Source: an uncultured Clostridia bacterium
GTDB lineage: Bacteria > Bacillota > Clostridia > Christensenellales > Aristaeellaceae
NCBI GenBank assembly: GCA_946627565.1
Contig: CAMOVR010000002.1
Location: 16,854 to 80,853, forward strand
Direction: 5' to 3'
Length of the DNA stretch: 64,000 nucleotides
A program made the position numbers and the translations under genes. This document shows, piece after piece, positions 8,327 through 21,659 of the stretch; the first letter of the stretch is position 1, and each line of letters opens with the position of its first letter. The notes beneath the pieces were generated by a model, which saw only the letters and a list, made by a program, of their open reading frames with translations, was not told the origin of the DNA and searched no databases.

Positions 8327-10636
8327 ATGAGACTGATTCCCATTCGCTGTACGGCGCTTCTGCCCGATACCACAGTCTATCTGCATACAAGTGAACTGCT
8401 CCTGGCAAAGGATGAGAAAATGCCGGAAAAGGGGGAGCAGGTCCTGCTGGTCCCCATGAAGGCCGGAGAAACAGTCTTTGAACCGGAAAGGGCAGAGGAG
8501 CTGCTTTTCCCCATCGGTGTGGTGGGCGCACCTGCCGAATGCCTGTTCCAGGATTACATGGCCTTTGCCACGGATGAGCGGATCATCTGGTCAAATCTGA
8601 CTTCCCAGGGGGATATGTTTGAAGCGGATTTCATGCCCGTTGAGGATACGGATCCTCTGGAACCCTTCGTGGCCGGCATGCGGTATGCCAGGCTCCTGGA
8701 TGCCTTTGCTTCCTTCCTGGATGAAATGCCGGCCGGGGACATGATCAAGCAGCGCATCCTTCCGGGACTGAAATCGGTGGCGGACCTTTTCTGCGTGCTG
8801 ACCGTGTGGCTTAACTGGCAGGGGGAGGACATGGAGTACCTTCTCAATGAGAGCAGTGAAACCAGACGTGTGGACAAGATGGAAGGCATGCTGCAGGAAA
8901 CCATTGCGTCCCTGCGGCTGAGCCATGCCGGCGCCGTGGAGAGGGAAACGGAGAATATCCGCCAGTACCGGGAAGCGGCCATCCGCAAACAGATTTCCTT
9001 CCTGGAAAAGCAGCTGGATGAGCTGCATCCGGAGGCCATATCGGATATACGGCTGTTTGAAAAGCGCCTGGAAGAGAGCGGCATGAACGAGACCGCCATG
9101 AAGGAAGCCCGCCGGGTACTGGCCAGGCTCAAGCAGGAGAACGAACACAGCGCAGAGTATGGTCTTCTGACGGACTATATGGATTTTGTCACGTCCCTGG
9201 ACTGGAAGGAGACGCCCTACGTCCCTGTCAATCTGGAAGAGGCGGAGAAAATCCTGGACCGGGACCACTATGGCCTGAAGGAGGCCAAGCGGCGGGTGGT
9301 GGAACAGATTGCGGTGATGAACCTTACCGGACATGTGTCCGGCTCCATCCTGCTGTTTGTGGGCAGCCCGGGTACGGGCAAGACCAGCATCGGCAGAAGT
9401 GTGGCGGAGGCCATGGGACGCAAGTATGTCCGGGTGTCCCTGGGCGGCGTCCGGGATGAAGCTGACATCCGCGGCCACCGGCGCACCTATATCGGTGCCA
9501 TGCCGGGGCGCATCATGGATGCCATCCATAAATGCGGGGACAATCATCCGGTCATGGTGCTGGATGAAGTGGACAAGCTGTGCGCATCCGTGCAGGGAGA
9601 CCCCGCCAGCGCCCTGCTGGAGGTTCTGGATCCGGAGCAGAACAATACCTTTACGGACCACTACATGAATGTGCCCTATGACCTCTCCCATGTGTTCTTT
9701 ATCTGCACGGCCAATACCACCACTTCCATTCCCGAGCCCCTGCTCAACCGTATGGAGGTGATCCGTTTCCCGGGGTATACGGCCGTGGAGAAGCGGGAGA
9801 TCGGGGAAAGACATCTGCTACCCAGAGCACGGGAAGCTGTGGGCCTGAAGGAAGAAAACCTGACATTGGGTGCCGGGGTCATGGACCAGATCATAGCGGA
9901 ATATACGGCGGAAGCCGGCGTCCGGGCCCTGCGCAAGCGCCTGGATGCCCTGTGCCGGCAGGCTGCCGTCAGGAGCTGGAAACAGAAGGGAAAGGCCCTG
10001 CGGATCACAAAGCGGAATCTTTCCAGCTTCCTTGAGGGTCATCCGATCCATCATGTCCGGGTGCCTGAGAGCCAGAGGAGCGGTGTGGTGACCGGGCTTG
10101 CCTGGACAGCAGCGGGCGGTGACATTCTGTTCATTGAAACCGCCCTTATGGAGGGTAAGGAGCAGGTGCTTCTGACAGGCCAGCTGGGGGATGTCATGAA
10201 GGAATCCGCCAGGATTGCCCTGAGTCTGGTGCAGATCCTGCTGCCGGAGCATGCAGGGAAACTGCGGGACCATGTGGTGCATGTGCATGTACCGGCCGGC
10301 AGTGTGCCCAAGGACGGACCCAGTGCAGGCATTACCATGACCACAGCTCTGGCATCCCTTCTGACGGGCAGGCCTGTGGACCCGGCCCTGGCCATGACAG
10401 GGGAAATCTCCCTGAGGGGCGATGTGACCGCCATAGGCGGGCTGCCGGAAAAGCTCATGGCAGCGGTCCGGGCGGGCGTTACCAGGGTCCTGATTCCCGA
10501 AGAGAACAAAGAGGACCTGGAGGATGTGCCGGATGAGGTACGCAGGCAGCTTGACATCATTCCAGTGAAAACCATCCAGGAAGTCCTGGGTATCGCCGGC
10601 ATTCTGGAAAGCGGAGACAGCGCCCAGAAACAGTAA
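8327..10636 (+). CDS. lon: ATP-dependent Lon protease (endopeptidase La)
   Basis: 769 aa with an N-terminal LON substrate-binding domain, Walker A GSPGTGKTS, Walker B VMVLDEVDK, and a protease domain with VPKDGPSAGITMTTAL (catalytic Ser). Confidence 0.95.
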   Translation: MRLIPIRCTALLPDTTVYLHTSELLLAKDEKMPEKGEQVLLVPMKAGETVFEPERAEELLFPIGVVGAPAECLFQDYMAFATDERIIWSNLTSQGDMFEADFMPVEDTDPLEPFVAGMRYARLLDAFASFLDEMPAGDMIKQRILPGLKSVADLFCVLTVWLNWQGEDMEYLLNESSETRRVDKMEGMLQETIASLRLSHAGAVERETENIRQYREAAIRKQISFLEKQLDELHPEAISDIRLFEKRLEESGMNETAMKEARRVLARLKQENEHSAEYGLLTDYMDFVTSLDWKETPYVPVNLEEAEKILDRDHYGLKEAKRRVVEQIAVMNLTGHVSGSILLFVGSPGTGKTSIGRSVAEAMGRKYVRVSLGGVRDEADIRGHRRTYIGAMPGRIMDAIHKCGDNHPVMVLDEVDKLCASVQGDPASALLEVLDPEQNNTFTDHYMNVPYDLSHVFFICTANTTTSIPEPLLNRMEVIRFPGYTAVEKREIGERHLLPRAREAVGLKEENLTLGAGVMDQIIAEYTAEAGVRALRKRLDALCRQAAVRSWKQKGKALRITKRNLSSFLEGHPIHHVRVPESQRSGVVTGLAWTAAGGDILFIETALMEGKEQVLLTGQLGDVMKESARIALSLVQILLPEHAGKLRDHVVHVHVPAGSVPKDGPSAGITMTTALASLLTGRPVDPALAMTGEISLRGDVTAIGGLPEKLMAAVRAGVTRVLIPEENKEDLEDVPDEVRRQLDIIPVKTIQEVLGIAGILESGDSAQKQ

Positions 10637-10681: not shown

Positions 10682-10853
10682 CTGACATGTACCGCAGAAC
10701 CCGTATACTTCTGTTCAGCCGGGGTAAAACCCGGGAGAGAAAACGCTCAGATCATGGGCGCCGTCTGAGATGGCTGCCGGAGTCAGAATGGTCTGCTGCT
10801 GTCTGATGGTATCTGATGAAATACAACGCGATCTGCTTGAGAAAGGAAATGTT

Positions 10854-11597
10854 ATGATCAGACTGGAGCATGTCAGCAAAGTGTACGGAAACAGTGACAG
10901 GAAAGCACTGAACGATCTTTCCATGGAAGTGCCGGGGGGCTGTGTCTATGGATTCCTGGGCCCGAACGGCGCAGGCAAGACCACAGCCATCCGTCTTATC
11001 ACCGGGGTGCTGAAGCCCACGGAGGGGCGGATCCTGGTGGACGGAATCGACGTGGCGGAAAATCCCCTGGAAGTCAAACGCCGCATCGGCTTTGTCCCGG
11101 ACTCCCAGGAAATGTATGAAAAACTCACCGGCATGGAGTACCTGAATTTCATGGCGGACATCTTCGGTGTCAGCGTGAAGGACAGGAAGGAGAGGGCAGA
11201 AAAGTATCTGGCCACCTTTGAACTGGAGAGTGCAGCCGGACAGAGAATCCAGGGCTATTCCCGCGGCATGAAGCAGAAGCTGGCGGTGATCGGGGCCCTG
11301 ATCCATGATCCCGCGGTATGGATCCTGGACGAACCCATGGTGGGCCTGGACCCCAGGGCATCCTTCCTGCTGAAGGAGGAACTGCGGGCAAGGGCGGAGG
11401 CAGGCGTCACCGTCTTCTTCTCCACCCATGTACTGGAGGTGGCGGAGCGGCTGTGCGACCGGGTGAGCATCATCAATCATGGACACCTGATCGCTGAGGG
11501 TACGCCGGAGGAACTCCGCAGCGGTGAGCATGCCGCATCCCTGGAAGAACTGTTCCTTGAGCTTACGGAGGATTCGGAGGAAGGTGAAGGCGCATGA
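10854..11597 (+). CDS. ABC transporter ATP-binding protein
   Basis: ATG at 10854 (MIRLEHVSKVY..) after AAAGGA. Walker A GPNGAGKTT, signature YSRGMKQKL, Walker B VWILDEP. Overlaps the permease gene start (ATGA). Confidence 0.92.
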   Translation: MIRLEHVSKVYGNSDRKALNDLSMEVPGGCVYGFLGPNGAGKTTAIRLITGVLKPTEGRILVDGIDVAENPLEVKRRIGFVPDSQEMYEKLTGMEYLNFMADIFGVSVKDRKERAEKYLATFELESAAGQRIQGYSRGMKQKLAVIGALIHDPAVWILDEPMVGLDPRASFLLKEELRARAEAGVTVFFSTHVLEVAERLCDRVSIINHGHLIAEGTPEELRSGEHAASLEELFLELTEDSEEGEGA

Positions 11598-13240
11598 GGA
11601 ATTACAGGATTCTCACTGCCTTCCAGCTGAAGAACATGCTCTATTCCATGAACCCCTTTGATTCCATCGGGAAAAAGGGGAAAGCCAGGTACCGGGGCAT
11701 CCTGGTATGCCTGCTGCTGATCATGGCGGTGGGAAGTGTGGTTTTCCTGGAATTTGAAATGAATCAGGTGCTCTCTACGATACGCCAGCAGGCCATTTTA
11801 CCGGGACTTGCCCTGATGATCTGTATGATGTCCACCCTGGTGCTGGGCCTGTTCCAGTGTCTTTCCGAACTCTATCAGGGGCGGGATGCTGTTTTCCTGT
11901 CCGTGCTGCCCCTTTCGTCCAGACAGATTCTGACGGCAAGGCTGGCCACGCTGTATGTGTCGGAACTGGCCATAAATGCCGTCCTTCTGATGCCCGCCAC
12001 GGTTCTGTACGCCCTGAGCACGGACGAGGCGGTCACCGTTATCCTCCGGGGCCTGCTGGTGGTCCTGTTCTCCCCGGCGATACCCCTGGCGGTGGTGTCC
12101 CTTATCTCGTATTTCCTGATGCGGATCTCCGGCTTTGCAAAACACAGGGAAACCATCACCATGGCTCTGAGCCTGGTTCTGGCCATAGCCTGGTCCGTGT
12201 TTGTCACCCTCAACAACAGTTCAAATGACGAACAGATGTCTTCCCTGGTTATGCTCCTTCTTAAGGAAAACGGGCTGCTGCAGATGCTCACCAGCCGTAT
12301 CCCGCCGGTGCGCTGGGGCGCGGAGGGAATCTGCGGGAATGTGCCGCTGTGCCTTCTGTTTGTGGGAGTATCCTGTCTGGCCATGCTTCTTCCCATCTTT
12401 GTCTGCGGCCCCGGTTATCTGGAACAGGCGCTGAGCCTGACAGAGCAGACCATGACGACAAAGAGCAGGAAGATCCGGCAGACGGACTGGAAGGAATCCT
12501 CCCGCTTCATGGCCCAGTACATGCTGGAATGGCGCATGATCCTCAGAACGCCGGCCTGGATGATGAACTCCCTGATGGGCGTCATCATGTTCCCCCTGAT
12601 GATCGGCATAGGTGTGATTGCAGGGGTCAGCAACAATGCGGGCCCTGAGATGATGACACAGCTGCAGGAAATCACCCGGAATGCGGACCAGGGCTGGGTT
12701 CTGCTGATCGGCATTGCGGTGATCTGCATGGGCTGCATGGTCAATCCTGCCGTGGCCACGGCGTATTCCCGGGAGGGCGGCCGCTTCAGTGCTGCGCTGA
12801 CATGGCCGATCCTGGAAAGGACCAGGATGCATGCCAAACTGGCCATGGGTCTTTCCGTGAATCTGCTGTGCGGTTTCATGATTGCCTGCGTGAACTTTTT
12901 CACCGTGCGGGCTCCGCTTCTCACCGTTGCAGGGGCCTTTGTGATGGCTCAGCTCATAGGTCTTGCCACATCCGCCTTTTCCCTGCTTATTGATATGTGC
13001 TACCCCCGCCTGAGCTATATCAACGAAATGCAGGCCATAAAGCAGAACATGCATGTGGGCCTGTCCATGGCCATCTGGCTGGTATGCGTCATCCTGGCCG
13101 GTGTGCCCGTCATCTGGACCTGGAATCTTGGCGGCATGGCCGCTGCAGGCATAACCTGCGGGGTGATTGTGCTGGAAAGCGCAGTTTCCATGGTGCTTCT
13201 GGAACGGGCTGCCGCAAAGCCCCGTTACCTTCCTGACTGA
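11594..13240 (+). CDS. multi-pass membrane protein, putative ABC exporter permease
   Basis: 548 aa with about 12 hydrophobic segments, translationally coupled to the ATPase gene. Family assignment rests on context only. Confidence 0.7.
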   Translation: MRNYRILTAFQLKNMLYSMNPFDSIGKKGKARYRGILVCLLLIMAVGSVVFLEFEMNQVLSTIRQQAILPGLALMICMMSTLVLGLFQCLSELYQGRDAVFLSVLPLSSRQILTARLATLYVSELAINAVLLMPATVLYALSTDEAVTVILRGLLVVLFSPAIPLAVVSLISYFLMRISGFAKHRETITMALSLVLAIAWSVFVTLNNSSNDEQMSSLVMLLLKENGLLQMLTSRIPPVRWGAEGICGNVPLCLLFVGVSCLAMLLPIFVCGPGYLEQALSLTEQTMTTKSRKIRQTDWKESSRFMAQYMLEWRMILRTPAWMMNSLMGVIMFPLMIGIGVIAGVSNNAGPEMMTQLQEITRNADQGWVLLIGIAVICMGCMVNPAVATAYSREGGRFSAALTWPILERTRMHAKLAMGLSVNLLCGFMIACVNFFTVRAPLLTVAGAFVMAQLIGLATSAFSLLIDMCYPRLSYINEMQAIKQNMHVGLSMAIWLVCVILAGVPVIWTWNLGGMAAAGITCGVIVLESAVSMVLLERAAAKPRYLPD

Positions 13241-14203: not shown

Positions 14204-14970
14204 CTGAACCCCCATTTCCAGAAGAACTGCAGGGCGGAGCGGATATGAACCCAGCGCAGATAGGGAGACCTTGCGTCCTCCCGGTTCCAGACATGGGTCA
14301 CATGCATATCCGGATGATAGACCACATGTCCGTACTGAAGGGCCTTCAGCGTCAGGTCACTGTCTTCCAGATAGAGGAAATAGCGCGGATCAAAACCCTG
14401 CATTCTGTTGAGAATATGGCTGCGGACCATCATGAAACAGCCCGTGGCAAATTCCACGTCAATGGGTTCGGTGATCTCCTCATTGCGCATGGTGTACTCG
14501 TCCCGCCAGGTTGTAAAAGGCTTCCCGAACTTTTCCAGGGGGCCGCCCAGGAGATAGCGGACAGTGGGCCTGCGGTGGGGCAGGTGCTGTTCTTCACCGT
14601 TGGGGAAGAAGACCCGGGGAGAGAGAATGATGATGTCGTGATGGGCATCCATATAGTCAGCCATGCGGGAGACCAGATCCGGTTCAAAGGTGATGTCCGG
14701 GTTCAGAATGATATGGTAGGTGGAAGTCAGGTGCGGCAGGACGACATTGTTGGCCCTCCCGTACCCGATGTTCTTTTTCTGAGGGAAAAAGACAGTGGAG
14801 GGGTCCATGTTGTATATGATTTTCTGAACCGTGTCCTGATTGCTGTTGTCCACCACATACAGCCGGATGCGTTCGGTGGAACGGATCAGGCATCCCACGG
14901 AACGCTGGACCGTGGCTGAAGGCGTATTGTACAGGACCATACAGGCGGAAATGCGGGGATCGTCAATCAT
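14197..14970 (-). CDS. family-2 glycosyltransferase (rhamnosyltransferase-like)
   Basis: ATG at 14970 (MIDDPRISACMVLYNTP..VVDNSNQD..) preceded by GGAGG. The longer ORF to 15147 crosses the upstream terminator. Confidence 0.85.
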   Translation of the reverse strand: MIDDPRISACMVLYNTPSATVQRSVGCLIRSTERIRLYVVDNSNQDTVQKIIYNMDPSTVFFPQKKNIGYGRANNVVLPHLTSTYHIILNPDITFEPDLVSRMADYMDAHHDIIILSPRVFFPNGEEQHLPHRRPTVRYLLGGPLEKFGKPFTTWRDEYTMRNEEITEPIDVEFATGCFMMVRSHILNRMQGFDPRYFLYLEDSDLTLKALQYGHVVYHPDMHVTHVWNREDARSPYLRWVHIRSALQFFWKWGFRW

Positions 14971-15083: not shown

Positions 15084-15110
15084 CAAAACCCGCTGCCTTC
15101 CGGCAGCGGG
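15084..15110 (-). terminator. intrinsic terminator after the DUF4956 gene
   Basis: On the minus strand: cccgctgcc-ggaa-ggcagcggg followed by TTTTG, 12 nt after the stop. Confidence 0.7.
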
Positions 15111-15121
15111 CCTTATTGCGT

Positions 15122-15793
15122 TTACAGCTGGGTCTGATTTTCCACATAGGGCAGAACGGAGATCTCCAGATTGCCGTTCCTGGTGCGCAGTTCGTCGATG
15201 AAGGCCTTTTCTTCGGAAGGGTTCTTCATCCGGATCCGGAAGGAGAGACGGAACATGGAGCCCATGCCGGTGGTCTTGACGCCTGCATTTTCCACGCTCT
15301 TCAGATAATGATCAAAGGTGTCCTTGAACACATCGGTGTAATCCAGGGATTCCGGAATGGTGATGCGCAGGAGCTTTTCCCCCATCAGGGAAGCATGGTC
15401 AAAGATCTTAAGGGAAGAGAGGAGAAGGAAGATGAGTCCCAGCACCAGAAGGGAGAGAATGCCATAGGCTACATAGCCCATGCCGAAAGCCACACCGGAA
15501 GCCATGGTGATCAGGATGGTGGCGATTTCATCGGAAGTACCCTGGGCGGAACGGAAGCGGATCAGGGCAAAGGCACCGCCGAAGGCCACGCCGGCACCGA
15601 TGTTGCCGTTGACGAAGGTCAGTACCATGCCCACCACAAAGGGAATCAGGGATGTGACGATAAAGAAGCGGCGGTTTGCCCGGATCCGGAAGGAGGCCAG
15701 ATAGGAAAAGAGTACACCGGAGAAAAGGGATGCGCATGCCATGATAAAGAACTGGGTGGGTGTAACGCTAAGGGAATAAATGGAATCGAACAT
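15122..15793 (-). CDS. DUF4956-family membrane protein
   Basis: 223 aa. The N-terminal multi-TM part includes the conserved-looking FALIRFRSA segment and is followed by a ~90-aa soluble C-terminal domain. It sits immediately downstream of a VTC-domain gene, as is usual for this family. Confidence 0.75.
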   Translation of the reverse strand: MFDSIYSLSVTPTQFFIMACASLFSGVLFSYLASFRIRANRRFFIVTSLIPFVVGMVLTFVNGNIGAGVAFGGAFALIRFRSAQGTSDEIATILITMASGVAFGMGYVAYGILSLLVLGLIFLLLSSLKIFDHASLMGEKLLRITIPESLDYTDVFKDTFDHYLKSVENAGVKTTGMGSMFRLSFRIRMKNPSEEKAFIDELRTRNGNLEISVLPYVENQTQL

Positions 15794-15808
15794 GATATTC
15801 TATCCTCC

Positions 15809-16513
15809 TCAATGAACCGCGGAGCGGACAATCTGCTGCCTGAATGCTTCACCGTATTTTGAAAAACTGTTTTTGTAGATATGACCCTGGTCCAGGATCC
15901 TGGAAAGCCACATGGGCACAGCCTGCTGGACTTTGATTTCCAGGATAGTGTCACCCTCCGGCCTCAGGAGCGTCCCGTCCATGGAGGTGGACAGGTTCAG
16001 ATCACTGACCCGGTAGCGGGGATTGTAGTCTATGGTCAGCCGCAGATCCCCGCCGGGTTCATAGTACGCTTCCCGGTCATAGATGATGAGGCAGGAAGGA
16101 ACAAGGGAACCGTAGAAGTCCCTGAACCAGGTAATTTCCCGGTTGATCTGGCCGCCTGCACAGATATCGCCGCTGCCGGCAAAGAATTTATCCACCAGGG
16201 GGATGGTGCTCTGGACCCGGCGCTTGTAGACAACGCCGTAGGCCTTGCGCTTGAGCTCCAGAAAGACCGGGGAGGAATCCGTGGCGAGGCCGTAGCTGCG
16301 CAGACGGATCTTTTCCTTGAACAGGGGCTTTTCCAGAGATGTGCGGATCAGCCTGTAGTCCGGGGTGTCGTAATAAAGGGAAGCGATGCTGGTGCGCCCG
16401 TACTGGTCAAGGCACATATGTCCTTCAAGCTGCCTGACCAGGTATTCTGTCTGCGCGGCATTGAGCAGGTATTTCAGCTCATAGCGCATCATGACGACAA
16501 TTGGTCCTGCCAT
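15809..16513 (-). CDS. VTC-domain protein (polyphosphate-polymerase-like tunnel domain)
   Basis: 234 aa. The N-terminal RYELKYLL motif and basic beta-strand pattern (..FKEKIRLRSY..FLELKRKAYGVVYKRR..) match bacterial VTC domains. GGGAGG RBS 6 nt upstream of the ATG at 16513. Confidence 0.75.
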   Translation of the reverse strand: MAGPIVVMMRYELKYLLNAAQTEYLVRQLEGHMCLDQYGRTSIASLYYDTPDYRLIRTSLEKPLFKEKIRLRSYGLATDSSPVFLELKRKAYGVVYKRRVQSTIPLVDKFFAGSGDICAGGQINREITWFRDFYGSLVPSCLIIYDREAYYEPGGDLRLTIDYNPRYRVSDLNLSTSMDGTLLRPEGDTILEIKVQQAVPMWLSRILDQGHIYKNSFSKYGEAFRQQIVRSAVH

Positions 16514-16530
16514 GGTTTACCTCCCTCAGA

Positions 16531-17766
16531 TTACAGACGTATGGTAAGGGTAAAGACACCGCCGTCTGCTTTGGCGTGTGCACGTCCGTTCAGAAGCTGC
16601 ACGGTTTCTCTGACCCTGGCCAGCCCCAGGCCGTAGCCGGGCACATCCTGTGCGTTTTCAAGTCTTGTGAAGCGGTCAAACACCTGATCCAGACTGCCGT
16701 CGGGAAGGGATGTATCGTTTCTCGTCTCTATGGTGATCCGGCCGCCGGTTTCCTTCAGTTCAATCTCAAACCAGGACAGGGCATATTTCCGTCCGTTTTC
16801 GATCAGCTCCCGTATCAGCGCGGCAGTTTCTTCACCGTTGCCGCTTATCTCAATGGGGGTGTCCGTTTCCGGGAGCATGCGGATCTGACAGCGCCTTTCC
16901 TCAAAGGACGGCATGGCGGAATCCACGCAGCGTCTTGCCAGGGAAGTGAGGTCGAAGCGGATGTCAGCATGCTCTTCGTCCGGCAGGTTCTGATCTGGCA
17001 GCTGCCGGATGATATCCGTCATGTGCCGGACCTGTCTTAGGATGGTCCGCGTCTCATCGCTTTCCCCGTGCGCCCGCTCCAGAAGTTCCGTATTGGCTTC
17101 AATCAATGTCAGGGGCATGCGGAAGGTGCTGCTGACGTCCCGGGTGAAGTGCCGCTGCTTCCGCTCAGCTTCTTCCAGGGGCCTGTAGAGCTTCCGGCTG
17201 AGGAGCGTGAGCAGGATGGCGCTGATGAAGGTTCCCAGCACCAGGCCGGCGATGGAGATCAGGAGGATGCGGTAGGAGGGTACAAGCTCACGGCTCTGGT
17301 CCACCACCGTGACAAAGGTGCGGTCCTTGATGGTATAGATCCGGTAGCGGTACGTAATACCGGTCCATCCGGTTTCACTGCCGGATTTTTCCAGCAGGGA
17401 GAGGGCCCAGCTGATGGCCTCATCCTGGGAAACGGCGGAAATGGAATAATGAACCAGTTCGCCGCCGTTGCGGTCTGCATCCAGGGCATATGTGAAGTAC
17501 CGCAGGGAAGGAGTGAGATCCGGGGACATGGGTGTATTGAATCCGAATCCTCCGAATGGACTGGTTCTTCTGCCGCGGCCCGGCATGGCAAAGCTGTTTT
17601 CCTGCTGCAGGATGCCGTTGTTCTGAGCAATGATGCCGGTGATGTGGTCCCCGTCTTCGCTGACAACGGTGAAGTTGACGCCGTTGATGATCAGCAGCAG
17701 GATGGAAAGAAGGGCAAATACGGAAATGGTGGCAAACAGGATCAGCCGTTTTCTTGCTTTGTTCAT
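16531..17766 (-). CDS. sensor histidine-kinase-like protein (H-box apparently lacks the phospho-His)
   Basis: 411 aa with two TM helices flanking a ~140-aa extracytoplasmic domain. The DHp-like segment reads QRHFTRDVSSTFRMPL, against the canonical ..SHELRTPL. N-box LIENGRKYA and G2 GYGLGL are present, but G1 is not evident. Confidence 0.8.
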   Translation of the reverse strand: MNKARKRLILFATISVFALLSILLLIINGVNFTVVSEDGDHITGIIAQNNGILQQENSFAMPGRGRRTSPFGGFGFNTPMSPDLTPSLRYFTYALDADRNGGELVHYSISAVSQDEAISWALSLLEKSGSETGWTGITYRYRIYTIKDRTFVTVVDQSRELVPSYRILLISIAGLVLGTFISAILLTLLSRKLYRPLEEAERKQRHFTRDVSSTFRMPLTLIEANTELLERAHGESDETRTILRQVRHMTDIIRQLPDQNLPDEEHADIRFDLTSLARRCVDSAMPSFEERRCQIRMLPETDTPIEISGNGEETAALIRELIENGRKYALSWFEIELKETGGRITIETRNDTSLPDGSLDQVFDRFTRLENAQDVPGYGLGLARVRETVQLLNGRAHAKADGGVFTLTIRL

Positions 17767-18362
17767 ACTCTCACCACACTGTGATATCCTTTCTCGTGGC
17801 TGTATTCGATACGGGCCCCTTTGCCCATCCGGCGCAGCTTCTCATTGAGGGCCAGGACCATGGAGCGGGTCCTGCTGCCCCGGAGGGAATCGCCCCTGTC
17901 AAGGGCACGGATCAGTTCAAGTTCATTTCCTGTCAGACGGACCGGGCTGTCATGAAAACAGAAGCGGGACACATCTGCCTGGGCATCGCCCAGCTGCAGG
18001 CTGTTTTCATCCTTAAGGCAGCGGAGGACCATGTCCATGGATCCCAGGAGCTCCTCATGGGTGAAGGGGAGAGAAAGAAAAGCATGGGGAAGCTGGGGAC
18101 GGAGCAGATGGGAAACCCGCAGCTGCTGGGATAAAAGCGTGATGACAGGTGTCTGAAGAAAATGTCTGAGCATCTGTTCCCGGTTGACACAGGGCAGGGT
18201 ATCCTCCAGAAGAATCATGTCATATCCGCCGGACACCAGCATGATGGCCTGGGCTCCGTCAAAGGCGGTGCTGACCTCATGCCCGTCCATTTTCAGCAGC
18301 TTTTCATAGGTCTTCAGGAAGTCTCTGTCGGAGACTGCAAGAAGAATTTTCATGCCTTTCAT
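17763..18362 (-). CDS. OmpR-type response-regulator-like protein (atypical receiver)
   Basis: 199 aa with a receiver-like N-terminus (KILLAVSDRD..YDMILLEDTLP..) and a winged-helix C-terminus (LTGNELELIRAL..YSHEKGYHSV). ATGA overlap with the kinase gene. An alternative start lies at 18353. Confidence 0.8.
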   Translation of the reverse strand: MKGMKILLAVSDRDFLKTYEKLLKMDGHEVSTAFDGAQAIMLVSGGYDMILLEDTLPCVNREQMLRHFLQTPVITLLSQQLRVSHLLRPQLPHAFLSLPFTHEELLGSMDMVLRCLKDENSLQLGDAQADVSRFCFHDSPVRLTGNELELIRALDRGDSLRGSRTRSMVLALNEKLRRMGKGARIEYSHEKGYHSVVRV

Positions 18363-18391
18363 TCCTTCCGTAAGGTTTTTCTGACCGGGTC

Positions 18392-19594
18392 TCAGCGGCG
18401 CTTGCCGCCGCCAAAGCCGCCGCCGTTGCCCCAGCCGCCGCCGAAGCCACCGTTTCCGCCTCCGAAACCGCCCATGCCGCCGTTGCCCCAGCCGCCCCTG
18501 CCCATGTTCTGGTTGGGAATGTAATCAATCTGGGTCCCGTTGGCAATGATGGTGCCGCCGGTGTAGGAAGCGTTTCCGTCATAGTCGAAGGTGCTGTTTC
18601 CGCTTACGCTGATGGTGCCGCCGTTGACATAGATGTTGCCGTTGGCGTCCACGCCGTCTGTGTCCCCGGCGCCCATGACGATGGTGGTTTCACCGCCGTT
18701 GAATTCCACGGTGGGGGTGTAGGCGCTGGACTTGCTGGCGGCGTTGATGCCGTCATCGGAAGCCTGGATGGAGATGGTGCCGCCGTTGATGAGAATGTAG
18801 GTGCCTTCAATGCCTTCGGCGCCCTGAACGGAGATGGTGCCGCCGTCGATCTGGACAACGCTGGTGGCGTGGATGGCGTCATCCCCTGCCTTTATGGAAA
18901 GGGTGCCGCCGCAGATATAGATATAGCCCAGGGTGGGATCTTCATCGCTTTCTGCATGGAGGCCGTCTGTTCCTGCGGTGAGGTTCAGGGTACCGTCGGC
19001 AATGCGGATGGAGTTTTCGGCCTCAAGGCATTTGGTTCCGGCTGTTACGGAAAGGGTGCCGCCGGTAACCTTGAGATCCTTCTTGCAGGCAATGCCGTTG
19101 TCGGTGGAGGATATGTTCAGCGCTGCAGTCCCGTTGATGACCAGATCAGCGCGGCAGAAGATGGTGCCGTCGGTGTTCCGGTCACCGTCTGCCCGGAAGG
19201 TTCCGGTGACGGAAAGGGAACTGTCAGAGACCGTGGTGATGAAGACTTTGTCGGCCTTGATGACGTAGATGCAGGGAAAGTCGGCGTTTGTGATGTTCAG
19301 GCCGTCAAGGACCAGCTGGACCCTGTCATCTGAGGTGGCCTCCACCCTCACGGTGACGCTGCTTGCCGTGCCGCTTAAAACATAGGTGCCGGCGGCGGTG
19401 ATGCTGATGTCATTTCCGTCTGAGACGGTATAGTATACGGCATCGGTCAGGTCCGGTTGCTGGTTCAGGTCACGGCTGGTGAAAAGATCACCGGAAGTGT
19501 AGAAACTGCCTGCACCTTCGGCAAGTGCCGTGAAGGACAGGGAAAGTACGAGGATCAGGGCGAGGAGAGAGAAGAAAATGGAATGGTTGCGCAT
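18392..19594 (-). CDS. secreted right-handed beta-helix protein, Cthe_2159-like carbohydrate-binding family, with Gly-rich C-terminal tail
   Basis: ATG at 19594 after AAAGGAG. Signal peptide MRNHSIFFSLLALILVLSLSFTALAEG. Repeated GGT(L/I)S(V/I)..DDGI/DGL turns. Tail GGWGNGGMGGFGGGNGGFGGGWGNGGGFGGGKRR. Confidence 0.75.
   Translation of the reverse strand: MRNHSIFFSLLALILVLSLSFTALAEGAGSFYTSGDLFTSRDLNQQPDLTDAVYYTVSDGNDISITAAGTYVLSGTASSVTVRVEATSDDRVQLVLDGLNITNADFPCIYVIKADKVFITTVSDSSLSVTGTFRADGDRNTDGTIFCRADLVINGTAALNISSTDNGIACKKDLKVTGGTLSVTAGTKCLEAENSIRIADGTLNLTAGTDGLHAESDEDPTLGYIYICGGTLSIKAGDDAIHATSVVQIDGGTISVQGAEGIEGTYILINGGTISIQASDDGINAASKSSAYTPTVEFNGGETTIVMGAGDTDGVDANGNIYVNGGTISVSGNSTFDYDGNASYTGGTIIANGTQIDYIPNQNMGRGGWGNGGMGGFGGGNGGFGGGWGNGGGFGGGKRR
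18395..18500 (-). repeat. coding low-complexity GGN/GGF/GGW repeat
   Basis: On the plus strand this reads as reiterated gccgcc(g/a)(aa/tt)gcc units. It encodes the Gly-rich tail of the beta-helix protein. Confidence 0.8.
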
Positions 19595-19685: not shown

Positions 19686-21659
19686 TCAGAGGATACATAC
19701 AAGGTTTTCCGTGTCCATCTGCACGGTCAGGGATGTTTCATCCAGGACCCAGATGACCGGAAGGTCTTCAGGCAGCAGGATCAGGGGAAAGGTGAGCACC
19801 TCTTCCTCGGCCGTGTCTTCCTGAAGGGTATCTGCACCGCTTTCCGACAGGGGAATGGTATATACCCTGGCGCCACTGGTGATTTCCAGCTGCCGGATGC
19901 CGCAGGCCCGGAGAAGACTGAGGTCGGATAAACTGAACTGCCATACAGCGGGGTCTGTGTTGAGGGAGATGGCCAGGGCATCCTCCATCACGGTGGTGAC
20001 GAAGGTGCCCACCTCATCGGGTTTCAGGGTAAGTGTGCCGTCATGGACCTTCGCGGTGAAGGTGTCCGAGCCGCCGTTCAGGGAGAGGTCCAGGGGTACA
20101 TCGCCTGCAGTCAGGACAAGAATGGAAGATGCCGTGCCTGCCTCCAGTTTTCCGATGGCCGGGGATTCTTCTTCCGAAGTCTCCTGTTCAGCGGCTGTGT
20201 CTGATGCGGATCCGGGCTTTTTGGCCCCGGAAGAGGAAGACTGGGAAGAAGTGTCTGCGGCCTTTTTGGTTCCGGCGGAAGCGGGTTTGGAACTTCCTTT
20301 GGCAGTTCCCTTTGAAGTCTTTTTGGAAGCTTTTGAACCGGCATTTCCGGAGGAAGAGGCAGAGGCGGAATCTGAAGAAGTATCCGGCACGGTGTCTTCT
20401 TCGCCGCTCTCATCTGAAGTGCTTTCTTCCGCATCTTCACCGCTGTCCTCCTGAGTATCAGCGTTTTTCCGCCCTGAGGAGGTGGATTTGGCCTTTTTTC
20501 CACTGCCTGCGGATGTGCCGGCAGCGGAGAAAGCTGTTTCTGAAGTGTCTGCCCCGGTGGAATCCTGAGCAGGGACGGAAGCGGTATCTGCCTGGCTGTG
20601 CAGGGTATCTGTACCGGCCGGCTCTTCCGGGATCTCCTGGGCAGCTTCTTCCTGAATGCCTTCCGTGTCTGAAAGGCCGGTGCTCTCCAGGATGAAACTG
20701 CAGAGAGAAACGGTTGACAGACCATCCGGGTACCGGGCCGTCAGAATGACGGAGCAGGGTTCATTTACGGGAAACCATACAGAAGAGGCGGAAGAAGAAA
20801 GCCAGACGGTGAGAAAGGGTTCTGCGGTCTGGGCATGCAGCAGGGTTTCGCTCTGGCTGCTGATAACGGTGAAGTCGTACACTGCCTGCTCTCTGCCGTC
20901 CCAGCTCCAGGTGATTTCATCCCTGTTCCCCTGTACGTGCCAGATCCCGGTCTGTGGATCCAGCGTCCCGGAAACCGTGATCTGCGGTGCCGTATGGCCG
21001 GGGGATGCTTCGGAGACGGTGTCTTCCACAACCAGTACGGCAGGTGCTGCTTCCTGAACGGGTGCTTCCTCCGCAACGGGTGTGTCAGGGGTGTCCGTGG
21101 CCAGGCTCCCGGTGGATATTCCATCTTCCGTTTCTGTCTGCCATAAGGCAGTTTCCTGAGCGGATGGGTTTTCCCCGGGAATGTCCTGAAGGTAAGGATC
21201 CTGAACAGGCGTTTCTGAAATCAGGTCTTCCTGCGCGGTTGTTTCTGTCTCGCCGGATGATACCGCTGTCTCACCGGCAGCTGCCTGTGCTGCGCCGGTG
21301 CCGGCATATGCCGCTTCCGGTACAGGGGCTGTTTCATACTGGGGGGCTTCCGCTGCCCATTGTGTGGCGGAAGTTTCATCTGCACTTTCCGCTTCAGCCA
21401 TGGCTGCATCCTCTGCAGCATCCGGCAGCGCTGCGGAAGCTTCTTCAGGAGACACGAAGGTGTCTGCATCTCCGGAATCTGTTGTATTCAGGATGGTTTC
21501 CGCTTCCAGGGCGGAAACACCATACTCCATTTCGCACTGGATTTCCAGTATGCTCCCGTCGGATGCGGGCAGGATTTCTTCCGGGAGCTCTTCAGCCATG
21601 GAGACGGCGCCTGTCAGAAGGAAGATAGCCAGCAGGATACCGGCCGAACGTTTTTTCAT
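19686..21659 (-). CDS. secreted acidic Ser/Thr/Ala/Glu-rich protein of unknown function
   Basis: ATG at 21659 after AGGAGG. Signal peptide MKKRSAGILLAIFLLTGAVSMAEE. Long disordered acidic and S/K-rich tracts separate two compositionally normal segments. The ORF track extends this frame to 24191, but that part is antisense to real genes. Confidence 0.75.
   Translation of the reverse strand: MKKRSAGILLAIFLLTGAVSMAEELPEEILPASDGSILEIQCEMEYGVSALEAETILNTTDSGDADTFVSPEEASAALPDAAEDAAMAEAESADETSATQWAAEAPQYETAPVPEAAYAGTGAAQAAAGETAVSSGETETTAQEDLISETPVQDPYLQDIPGENPSAQETALWQTETEDGISTGSLATDTPDTPVAEEAPVQEAAPAVLVVEDTVSEASPGHTAPQITVSGTLDPQTGIWHVQGNRDEITWSWDGREQAVYDFTVISSQSETLLHAQTAEPFLTVWLSSSASSVWFPVNEPCSVILTARYPDGLSTVSLCSFILESTGLSDTEGIQEEAAQEIPEEPAGTDTLHSQADTASVPAQDSTGADTSETAFSAAGTSAGSGKKAKSTSSGRKNADTQEDSGEDAEESTSDESGEEDTVPDTSSDSASASSSGNAGSKASKKTSKGTAKGSSKPASAGTKKAADTSSQSSSSGAKKPGSASDTAAEQETSEEESPAIGKLEAGTASSILVLTAGDVPLDLSLNGGSDTFTAKVHDGTLTLKPDEVGTFVTTVMEDALAISLNTDPAVWQFSLSDLSLLRACGIRQLEITSGARVYTIPLSESGADTLQEDTAEEEVLTFPLILLPEDLPVIWVLDETSLTVQMDTENLVCIL

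Follow-up and report, generated by a model that had tools for sequence, protein, structure and literature searches.

Five consecutive minus-strand genes at positions 15122–19594 of the 64,000-nucleotide stretch analysed here (contig CAMOVR010000002.1 of assembly GCA_946627565.1, from an uncultured rumen Clostridia bacterium; hereafter the window) represent an envelope module that is conserved in Bacillota, in which a VTC-domain protein and a DUF4956 membrane protein are encoded next to an exported third partner and a sensor-regulator pair. From its sequence, the VTC protein is a candidate polyphosphate polymerase, and our working hypothesis, which we hold tentatively and with less than even confidence, is that a phosphate polymer is synthesised by this enzyme at the membrane, the polymer or its phosphoryl groups then being delivered to the outer face. 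We favour this reading because of the Vtc4-type active site, the tight coupling of the genes, and the consistently extracytoplasmic third partner.

The gene string was present at the expected coordinates in the open reading frame (ORF) list of the window, and the five-gene order, coordinates, ribosome-binding sites, and terminator described in an earlier sequence-only reading of this DNA were all confirmed by direct reading, while Pfam, NCBIfam, and PDB searches upheld the gene identities. In transcriptional order, and all on the minus strand, the genes encode an exported beta-helix protein of the Cthe_2159 family (400 aa; 18392..19594; Pfam PF14262, 226 bits, E = 5.8e-67), a degenerate OmpR-type response regulator (199 aa; 17763..18362; weak CpxR/CtrA NCBIfam matches), a degenerate sensor histidine kinase (411 aa; 16531..17766; HATPase_c, E = 4.8e-9), a stand-alone, cytoplasmic VTC-domain protein (234 aa; 15809..16513; PF09359, E = 1.7e-35), and a DUF4956 membrane protein (223 aa; 15122..15793; PF16316, E = 1.3e-8). 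From the coordinates, the successive intergenic spacings are 29 nt, a 4-nt overlap between the regulator and kinase-like genes, 17 nt, and 15 nt. Each of the five genes has a ribosome-binding site, and those of the VTC (GGGAGG), DUF4956 (GAGGAGG), and Cthe_2159 (AAAGGAG) genes were read directly. The string ends in an intrinsic terminator-like hairpin on the same strand (15085..15110), also read directly from the sequence, which consists of the stem CCCGCTGCC, a GGAA loop, the stem GGCAGCGGG, and TTTT, the stem being GC-rich and 9 bp long; it is absent from the output of a consensus scan because that scan demands at least five T. No second copy of any module gene was found within the 64-kb window.

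The arrangement was compared among related loci, the adjacency counts taking only loci whose contig extends far enough. The close relatives comprise 80 species-representative loci from rumen and gut Bacillota metagenome-assembled genomes (63–83% VTC identity) and one more, 81 in all. Here, the gene immediately after VTC encodes DUF4956 in 72 of 73 assessable loci, and the one immediately before VTC is kinase-like in 46 of 67; 36 of 62 loci have a regulator-like gene, and 21 of 35 have a Cthe_2159 gene on the same strand no more than 4.5 kb away (11 upstream, 10 downstream). Because of these neighbour counts, the arrangement is far beyond chance. The distant relatives are 80 further metagenome loci collected with a diverse profile, with VTC identity down to 42%, and their usual order is VTC, DUF4956, Cthe_2159. 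After clustering of VTC at 60% identity, DUF4956 is adjacent in 14/14 assessable clusters and Cthe_2159 is nearby, on either side of the pair, in 9/12; the gap between the VTC and DUF4956 genes has a median of ~9 nt and is at most 40 nt in 92%. A failure of VTC and DUF4956 to co-occur, which had been named in advance as grounds for abandoning the proposal of a joint function, was not seen, the two being together in essentially every assessable locus among the ~165 compared, and neighbour conservation upholds the idea of a functional unit. No recurrent neighbour besides the five module genes was found in the ~160 relatives. Among annotated or named records, the order is VTC, DUF4956, Cthe_2159 in Paenibacillus cellulosilyticus; response regulator, histidine kinase, VTC, DUF4956, and then a phospholipase D (PLD)/cardiolipin synthase (Cls)-like gene in Acetoanaerobium noterae; VTC, DUF4956, response regulator, histidine kinase, CotH in E. 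faecalis LR962858; and CotH, VTC, DUF4956 within an exopolysaccharide cluster in Pseudobutyrivibrio pNP95, while Nonomuraea has the VTC-DUF4956 pair alone.

The VTC protein matches PF09359 at 123.1 bits (cut-off 23) over residues 10–224 of 234, and it carries no other Pfam domain. Its AlphaFold2 (AF2) model, built from an alignment of 37 orthologues and with a predicted local distance difference test score (pLDDT) of 90.6, forms an eight-strand tunnel with a C-terminal helix. When this model was compared with the PDB using Foldseek, the 13 top matches were all yeast Vtc4, Vtc3, or Vtc2 (E = 1e-13 to 3e-11, TM score ≤0.75), the best being the Vtc4 entries 3G3R and 3G3Q (E = 1e-13, TM score 0.74), and CYTH-type hydrolases and cyclases trailed at E = 6e-8 or worse with a TM score of ~0.5. 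A single-sequence PDB search with the VTC protein returned WD40 matches, which we rejected as spurious, and a profile was needed instead; the VTC-family profile, with 86 homologues of 36–65% identity to the window protein, matches Vtc4 at E = 1.4e-12.

From the 86-homologue profile and a narrower 37-sequence profile, residues of the window protein were mapped to Vtc4 (window residue first) as R10=R196, E12=T198, K14=K200, R70=R264, R72=R266, E86=E279, K88=K281, K97=K294, R99=R296, Y145=Y359, R147=R361, R158=R373, D162=D377, E192=E426, K194=K428, S218=S457, and K219=K458. Across the 86 homologues most of these positions, among them K14, R70, R72, K88, R147, R158, E192, S218, and K219, are invariant and R10 is nearly so, while Y145 is kept in close relatives only. 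The mapped tunnel residues are identical or R/K-substituted, including E426 and K458, and the single departure is E12, an invariant Glu in the place of Thr198. Loss of the basic tunnel residues, set beforehand as an outcome that would count against a polymerase, was not seen: in the 86 homologues the basic residues are invariant, and so are the catalytic Lys and the Glu that binds metal. We strongly infer from these alignments that the VTC protein is catalytically competent and has nearly the same active site as the yeast polyphosphate polymerase. The catalytic tunnel fold is common to this protein and the eukaryotic VTC complex (yeast Vtc4/Vtc3 or Vtc2/Vtc1; 3G3Q/3G3R, 7YTJ, 8I6V), and in both systems a membrane protein is an obligate partner; unlike its eukaryotic counterpart, the window protein stands alone at 234 aa with neither an SPX domain nor a fused transmembrane region and has Glu for Thr198.

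More than 7,890 close VTC homologues carry the NCBI name ‘polyphosphate polymerase domain-containing protein’, and at 50% identity the family amounts to 8,699 clusters at E ≤1e-3 and 1,067 clusters at E ≤1e-30. The 150 best-listed cluster representatives are mostly stand-alone proteins of ~230–260 aa, and no VTC-DUF4956 fusion was found among the ten longest of these 150. One of these ten, P0125 (351 aa), has a weak receiver domain (residues 3–110; 23 bits, under the Pfam cut-off) fused to a full VTC domain (124–337), a hint that in some lineage the VTC enzyme may be a direct target of two-component signalling.

The DUF4956 protein matches PF16316 at 35.2 bits (cut-off 30.6), and 25/25 diverse relatives match the same family (best E = 1.7e-17). 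In its AF2 model (pLDDT 75.7), five transmembrane helices are followed by a beta-alpha-beta-beta-alpha-beta (ACT/ferredoxin-like) domain. The positive-inside rule places the Arg-rich loop 34–43 and the C-terminal domain in the cytoplasm and the N-terminus outside; therefore, the ACT-like domain and a cluster of charged residues are predicted to lie on the same side of the membrane as the VTC protein. These conserved residues are at the predicted cytoplasmic ends of helices 2–4, with R79-F80-R81 invariant and R42, D88, and E89 invariant in close relatives, and the soluble domain has the strongly conserved motifs ITIPESLDY, VKTTxMGS, and NGNLEI. The Foldseek search of the PDB with the DUF4956 model returned nothing at E = 0.001, and it was only the C-terminal domain that resembled generic ferredoxin/ACT-like folds; as modelled, the membrane domain is without structural precedent in the PDB. 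In size and in having an N-terminal multi-helix membrane domain and a small ACT-like cytoplasmic domain, DUF4956 is similar to MgtC/SapB, from which it is set apart by the motifs VNGNIGxGV, LIRFRSA, ITIPESLDY, and VKTTxMGS. The window protein matches MgtC (PF02308) at E = 0.067 and 14 bits, against a cut-off of 31.4; weak MgtC matches occur in 5 of 25 DUF4956 members (best E = 0.008, all under the cut-off), and hhalign of DUF4956 profiles against E. coli YhiD, of the MgtC family, gave no signal (probability ≤1%). We use ‘MgtC-like’ for this resemblance in build, homology not being established.

A split DUF4956 gene was observed in one human-gut lineage on at least 13 metagenome contigs, at 9038–9491 of locus L134 and also in L131, L133, L138, L143, L145, L150–L152, L155, L159, L161, and L162. 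A 77-aa N-terminal piece ends after VNGNLGTGV and an 82-aa C-terminal piece lies in a different frame, leaving a protein without helices 3–5 and without the invariant RFRS motif.

The third, exported partner alternates between Cthe_2159 and CotH. The beta-helix protein of the window is a clear member of the Cthe_2159 family, matching the polysaccharide-lyase-like beta-helix Cthe_2159 of C. thermocellum (PDB 4PEU/4PHB) at E = 1.2e-30, and it differs from the latter in being encoded with VTC-DUF4956 and in having a Gly/aromatic tail, a C-terminal Gly/Trp/Phe/Asn-rich segment that ends in KRR (18392–18520). It has a signal peptidase I-type signal peptide (…FTALA↓EG) and no lipobox. A strict lipobox pattern matches 45 of the 55 distinct N-termini in module-linked Cthe_2159 proteins, and most of those that remain have a Cys in a similar context, suggesting that the beta-helix partner is usually a lipoprotein held beside the membrane and that the window protein is an exception. 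Gly-rich tails interspersed with Phe, Trp, Met, Gln, and Asn, frequently with a final RR, KRR, or GRR, were also seen in module-linked Cthe_2159 ORFs of several lineages (L067, L073, L075, L100, L103, L153, L158, L020, and L047). The earlier suggestion that the beta-helix protein is a partner of the pair proved genuine and recurrent across clusters, and an extracellular role for it is a proposal.

CotH takes the place of the exported partner in E. faecalis LR962858 and Pseudobutyrivibrio pNP95. A CotH query found nothing within the window by phmmer and one marginal match over all collected loci (L075, E = 5e-5). In Acetoanaerobium noterae, a cardiolipin-synthase-like protein with PLDc_N and two PLD domains (L165:7480–9066) follows DUF4956 and occupies the spot of the beta-helix or CotH protein in other lineages. 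Members of the Cthe_2159 family are reported to bind cellulose and polygalacturonic acid; no paper linking the family to polyphosphate was found in the searched literature. In a comparison of anaerobic gut fungi with chytrid relatives, 40 Pfam domains were confined to the gut fungi, Cthe_2159 and CotH being two of them, and a bacterial origin was inferred for the fungal Cthe_2159 (10.1101/401869); the families paired in this fungal list are the same two that alternate beside bacterial VTC-DUF4956.

The VTC-DUF4956-CotH trio is already published. Genes for CotH, a polyphosphate polymerase, and DUF4956 (and DUF4832) form an accessory group of Gram-positive pel loci (10.1101/768473), and the C. 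perfringens locus NELoc-2 lists a cluster of VTC, a ‘tubulin-like’ membrane protein, and CotH (PMC2879425). In S. intermedius, deletion of DUF4956 or CotH reduced aggregation and altered Pel levels, the authors considered a possible tie to phosphate metabolism, and the DUF4956 homologue SIR_1592 was described as having an MgtC-type transmembrane domain and an intracellular ACT domain (PMC12345266), a build that agrees with our model of the window protein. The same authors did not find the three-gene synteny outside pel loci (PMC12345266). The statement in the sequence-only reading that bacterial pairs have no experimentally defined function overlooked these knock-outs and the earlier notice of the trio; no enzyme assay of a bacterial VTC protein was found in the searched literature. 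The pel-locus accessory genes (SIR_1594–1592) comprise the same VTC-DUF4956 pair and an exported protein; unlike this set, the window has Cthe_2159 at the exported position and a degenerate two-component pair, and no pel genes are among its annotated genes. The beta-helix variant of the module and the degenerate sensor pair were not found in the searched literature. In B. thetaiotaomicron, a DUF4956 protein (BT3498) is listed beside a DUF2490 protein (BT3499).

In the reading that we tentatively prefer, namely synthesis at the membrane and delivery to the outer face, the VTC protein would polymerise phosphate from a nucleoside triphosphate at the inner membrane face while docked to DUF4956 through the cytoplasmic ACT-like domain and conserved Arg/Asp/Glu cluster of the latter. 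More speculatively, an oligomer of DUF4956 might convey the polymer, or phosphoryl groups from it, to the outer face, where a membrane-tethered or wall-associated beta-helix protein, from a family reported to bind polyanionic sugars, might hold or use the polymer.

Several observations weigh against this reading. The S. intermedius VTC mutant still aggregated, with no change reported (PMC12345266), and in the searched literature we found no biochemical evidence for any bacterial VTC protein and no evidence of polyphosphate synthesis or export by the module. The human-gut lineage with an internally deleted DUF4956 keeps seemingly intact VTC and Cthe_2159 genes. DUF4956 has no Pfam match at E ≤10 to DUF202, the family of Vtc1-type channel subunits, and a Foldseek search with its model matched no chain of 7YTJ or 8I6V; moreover, a lone five-helix protein cannot form a pore for a polyanion unless it oligomerises. 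Finally, the invariant E12 sits at the position of the second Glu in the ExExK motif of tunnel-fold hydrolases and, therefore, two-metal hydrolytic chemistry is conceivable. The membrane partner of the bacterial enzyme is thus unrelated to Vtc1 by sequence and fold search and closer in build to MgtC, and the ‘split VTC-like synthase/translocase’ of the sequence-only reading did not survive as a statement of homology: that DUF4956 works like a VTC channel subunit is an analogy. As a whole, the earlier interpretation is partly supported.

An alternative that we consider unlikely, though not negligible, is that polyphosphate is made and kept inside the cell, with DUF4956 serving as an anchor or an MgtC-like regulator that ties synthesis to the membrane or to phosphate status and with the exported partner linked to the pair through a shared envelope-stress or phosphate regulon only. 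The conserved catalytic residues of VTC count in favour of this alternative, which also draws support from the MgtC-like architecture of DUF4956 (five transmembrane helices and an ACT-like domain), the weak MgtC matches in 5/25 members, the published MgtC and ACT description of the S. intermedius homologue (PMC12345266), and the lack of Foldseek similarity between DUF4956 and any known channel. However, the hhalign comparison with YhiD did not confirm MgtC homology, and the third partner is extracytoplasmic wherever identified and shifts around the pair yet stays linked to it, which is hard to explain by co-regulation alone.

It is also possible, but again doubtful, that the VTC protein is a tunnel-fold hydrolase or another enzyme processing nucleoside triphosphates or triphosphate, the activity of which signals to or energises DUF4956, for instance in moving or modifying an envelope component. 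The tunnel-fold enzymes characterised so far are mostly hydrolases or cyclases, and AtTTM3, in which the tunnel centre is near-identical, yielded no polyphosphate (PMC4641920). The CYTH tunnel enzymes (E. coli YgiF, 5A60; AtTTM3; class IV adenylate cyclases) have the same superfamily fold (Foldseek E = 1e-7), one VTC homologue has a weak CYTH match over strand 1, and the invariant E12 argues in the same direction: strand 1 reads R-x-E-x-K in the window protein, E-x-E-x-K in hydrolytic tunnel enzymes, and R-x-T-x-K in Vtc4, so that the E-x-K part of the CYTH motif is shared. On the other hand, R10 and K194 are basic as in Vtc4, where hydrolases have Glu, the assignment of K194 being based on the alignment to Vtc4 and on what PMC4641920 describes, not on structural superposition. 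In addition, fold and sequence are much nearer to Vtc4 than to CYTH enzymes, and the equivalent of Lys458 is invariant, whereas this residue, described as catalytic in Vtc4, is dispensable in a plant hydrolase of the tunnel fold (PMC4641920).

Less likely still, in our view, the pair might transfer phosphate or short chains onto a lipid-linked or polymeric surface glycan, the beta-helix or CotH protein then acting on the modified glycan outside. The module does occur beside or inside surface-glycan loci, including the Gram-positive pel operons (PMC12345266) and the pNP95 exopolysaccharide cluster; the window has two family 2 glycosyltransferase (GT2) genes and a deoxysugar island, and the reported binding of cellulose and polygalacturonic acid by the Cthe_2159 family would suit such a role. 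However, neither glycosyltransferases nor other glycan genes recur beside the module in the ~160 relatives, and the GT2 genes of the window lie behind the terminator with their own promoter-like site. We also know of no tunnel-fold enzyme that phosphorylates glycans. That the five genes are simply neighbours without a common function is highly improbable and already contradicted by the conservation data, because even though the one available same-sample metatranscriptome had no coverage of the locus and Cthe_2159 is missing near the pair in ~40% of close relatives, the pair and its partners persist with changing gene order down to 29–46% identity across several Bacillota orders and one actinomycete.

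Characterised bacterial polyphosphate synthesis relies on PPK1 and PPK2. In the large family of stand-alone bacterial VTC proteins the Vtc4 active site is fully conserved; should these proteins be phosphate polymerases, they would be another bacterial synthase beside the PPK enzymes. If delivery to the outer face by DUF4956 is true, there would be a dedicated route placing an inorganic, energy-rich polymer on the cell surface, which would account for the arrival of polyphosphate or its phosphoryl groups in a compartment without ATP and would provide the puzzling exported families Cthe_2159 and CotH with a function. What the window adds is that the beta-helix and CotH proteins share one place beside the pair, that the beta-helix partner is normally a lipoprotein next to the membrane, and that the two-component system of the module can lose its His, Asp, and Lys and yet persist as intact genes in ~50 species. 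In its most far-reaching form, which we regard as decidedly unlikely, the proposal is that many bacteria have a PPK-independent, yeast-type synthase, the product of which passes via an MgtC-like DUF4956 oligomer to interchangeable partners (Cthe_2159, CotH kinase) that capture or spend it, with control in the rumen clade operating without phosphotransfer.

The ‘two-component-like pair’ of the sequence-only reading stands as a gene pair and can be specified further as the degenerate descendant of an intact, dedicated system. The kinase-like protein has two transmembrane helices flanking an extracytoplasmic domain of ~130 aa; HATPase_c is over the Pfam cut-off, and HisKA, at 23 bits, is under its cut-off of 26.9 bits. 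Its H-box in the window is SSTFRMPLT, with Ser at the position of the His; the protein retains the N-box Asn and the G2 box. In the window’s clade, in which the N-box Asn and the G2 box are invariant, the His position is occupied by Lys, Ser, Arg, Asn, or Ala and by His in only 2/53 orthologues; across all loci it is His in 8/68. The regulator has no Pfam match at E = 0.01 (Response_reg, E = 0.12) and retains a winged-helix-like C-terminus. Its acceptor Asp is replaced by Glu (E53) and the conserved Lys by Leu (SLPF vs KPF) in the window; within the clade the acceptor position varies, being Asp in about half, and the conserved Lys is replaced.

Canonical kinase H-boxes (SHELKTPL or GHELKTPL) are found in the divergent loci L066, L091, L115, L116, L121, L122, and L149, and the L033 kinase retains the His within an otherwise divergent H-box. 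The regulators of L115, L116, L121, and L122 are intact (LD.MMP and TKPF). The window kinase aligns with the intact L121 kinase, which sits in the same five-gene set next to an intact regulator, by BLASTP at E = 1e-29 over 341 aa, including the extracytoplasmic sensor domain. Because the alignment extends through the sensor domain and because divergent loci have intact pairs, we conclude from sequence that the window pair descends from an intact, dedicated OmpR/histidine-kinase system; a dedicated two-component system accompanies the VTC-DUF4956 pair in Acetoanaerobium, Paenibacillus, Enterococcus, and the L121 lineage. The ratio of nonsynonymous to synonymous substitution rates (dN/dS), a rough value based on 8 usable pairs with dS ~1, is 0.15 for VTC and DUF4956 and 0.36–0.38 for the kinase and regulator genes (regulator, 0.38). 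Together with the intact ORFs in ~50 species, these ratios fit a relaxed yet continuing constraint on the sensor pair. If the pair still regulates in the rumen clade, it must act without phosphotransfer because the phosphorelay residues are lost there.

In a search for RNA evidence, the locus was detected solely in ruminant-gut DNA metagenomes. The annotated genes flanking the module encode two GT2 proteins, a MATE transporter, an ATP-binding cassette (ABC) pair, Lon, and a secreted acidic protein. Beyond the terminator, a promoter-like TTGTCA-17-TACAAT element (15060–15032) and a separate ribosome-binding site precede the ATG at 14970 of the first of the two GT2 genes and, therefore, the GT2 genes are probably a transcription unit apart from the five-gene string. 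Neither these nor the Lon and ABC genes are conserved with the module. On the other side, 91 nt upstream of the beta-helix gene, 19686–21659 (minus strand) encodes a secreted, acidic, Ser/Thr/Ala/Lys-rich protein of 657 aa that has no Pfam match and that we place outside the conserved set because no homologue lies beside the module in the ~160 related loci. Past the GT2 genes, the opposite strand carries the Lon protease and the ABC ATPase/permease pair, of which the 548-aa permease-like protein is without a Pfam match, at 8327–10636 and 10770–13240 (both plus strand).

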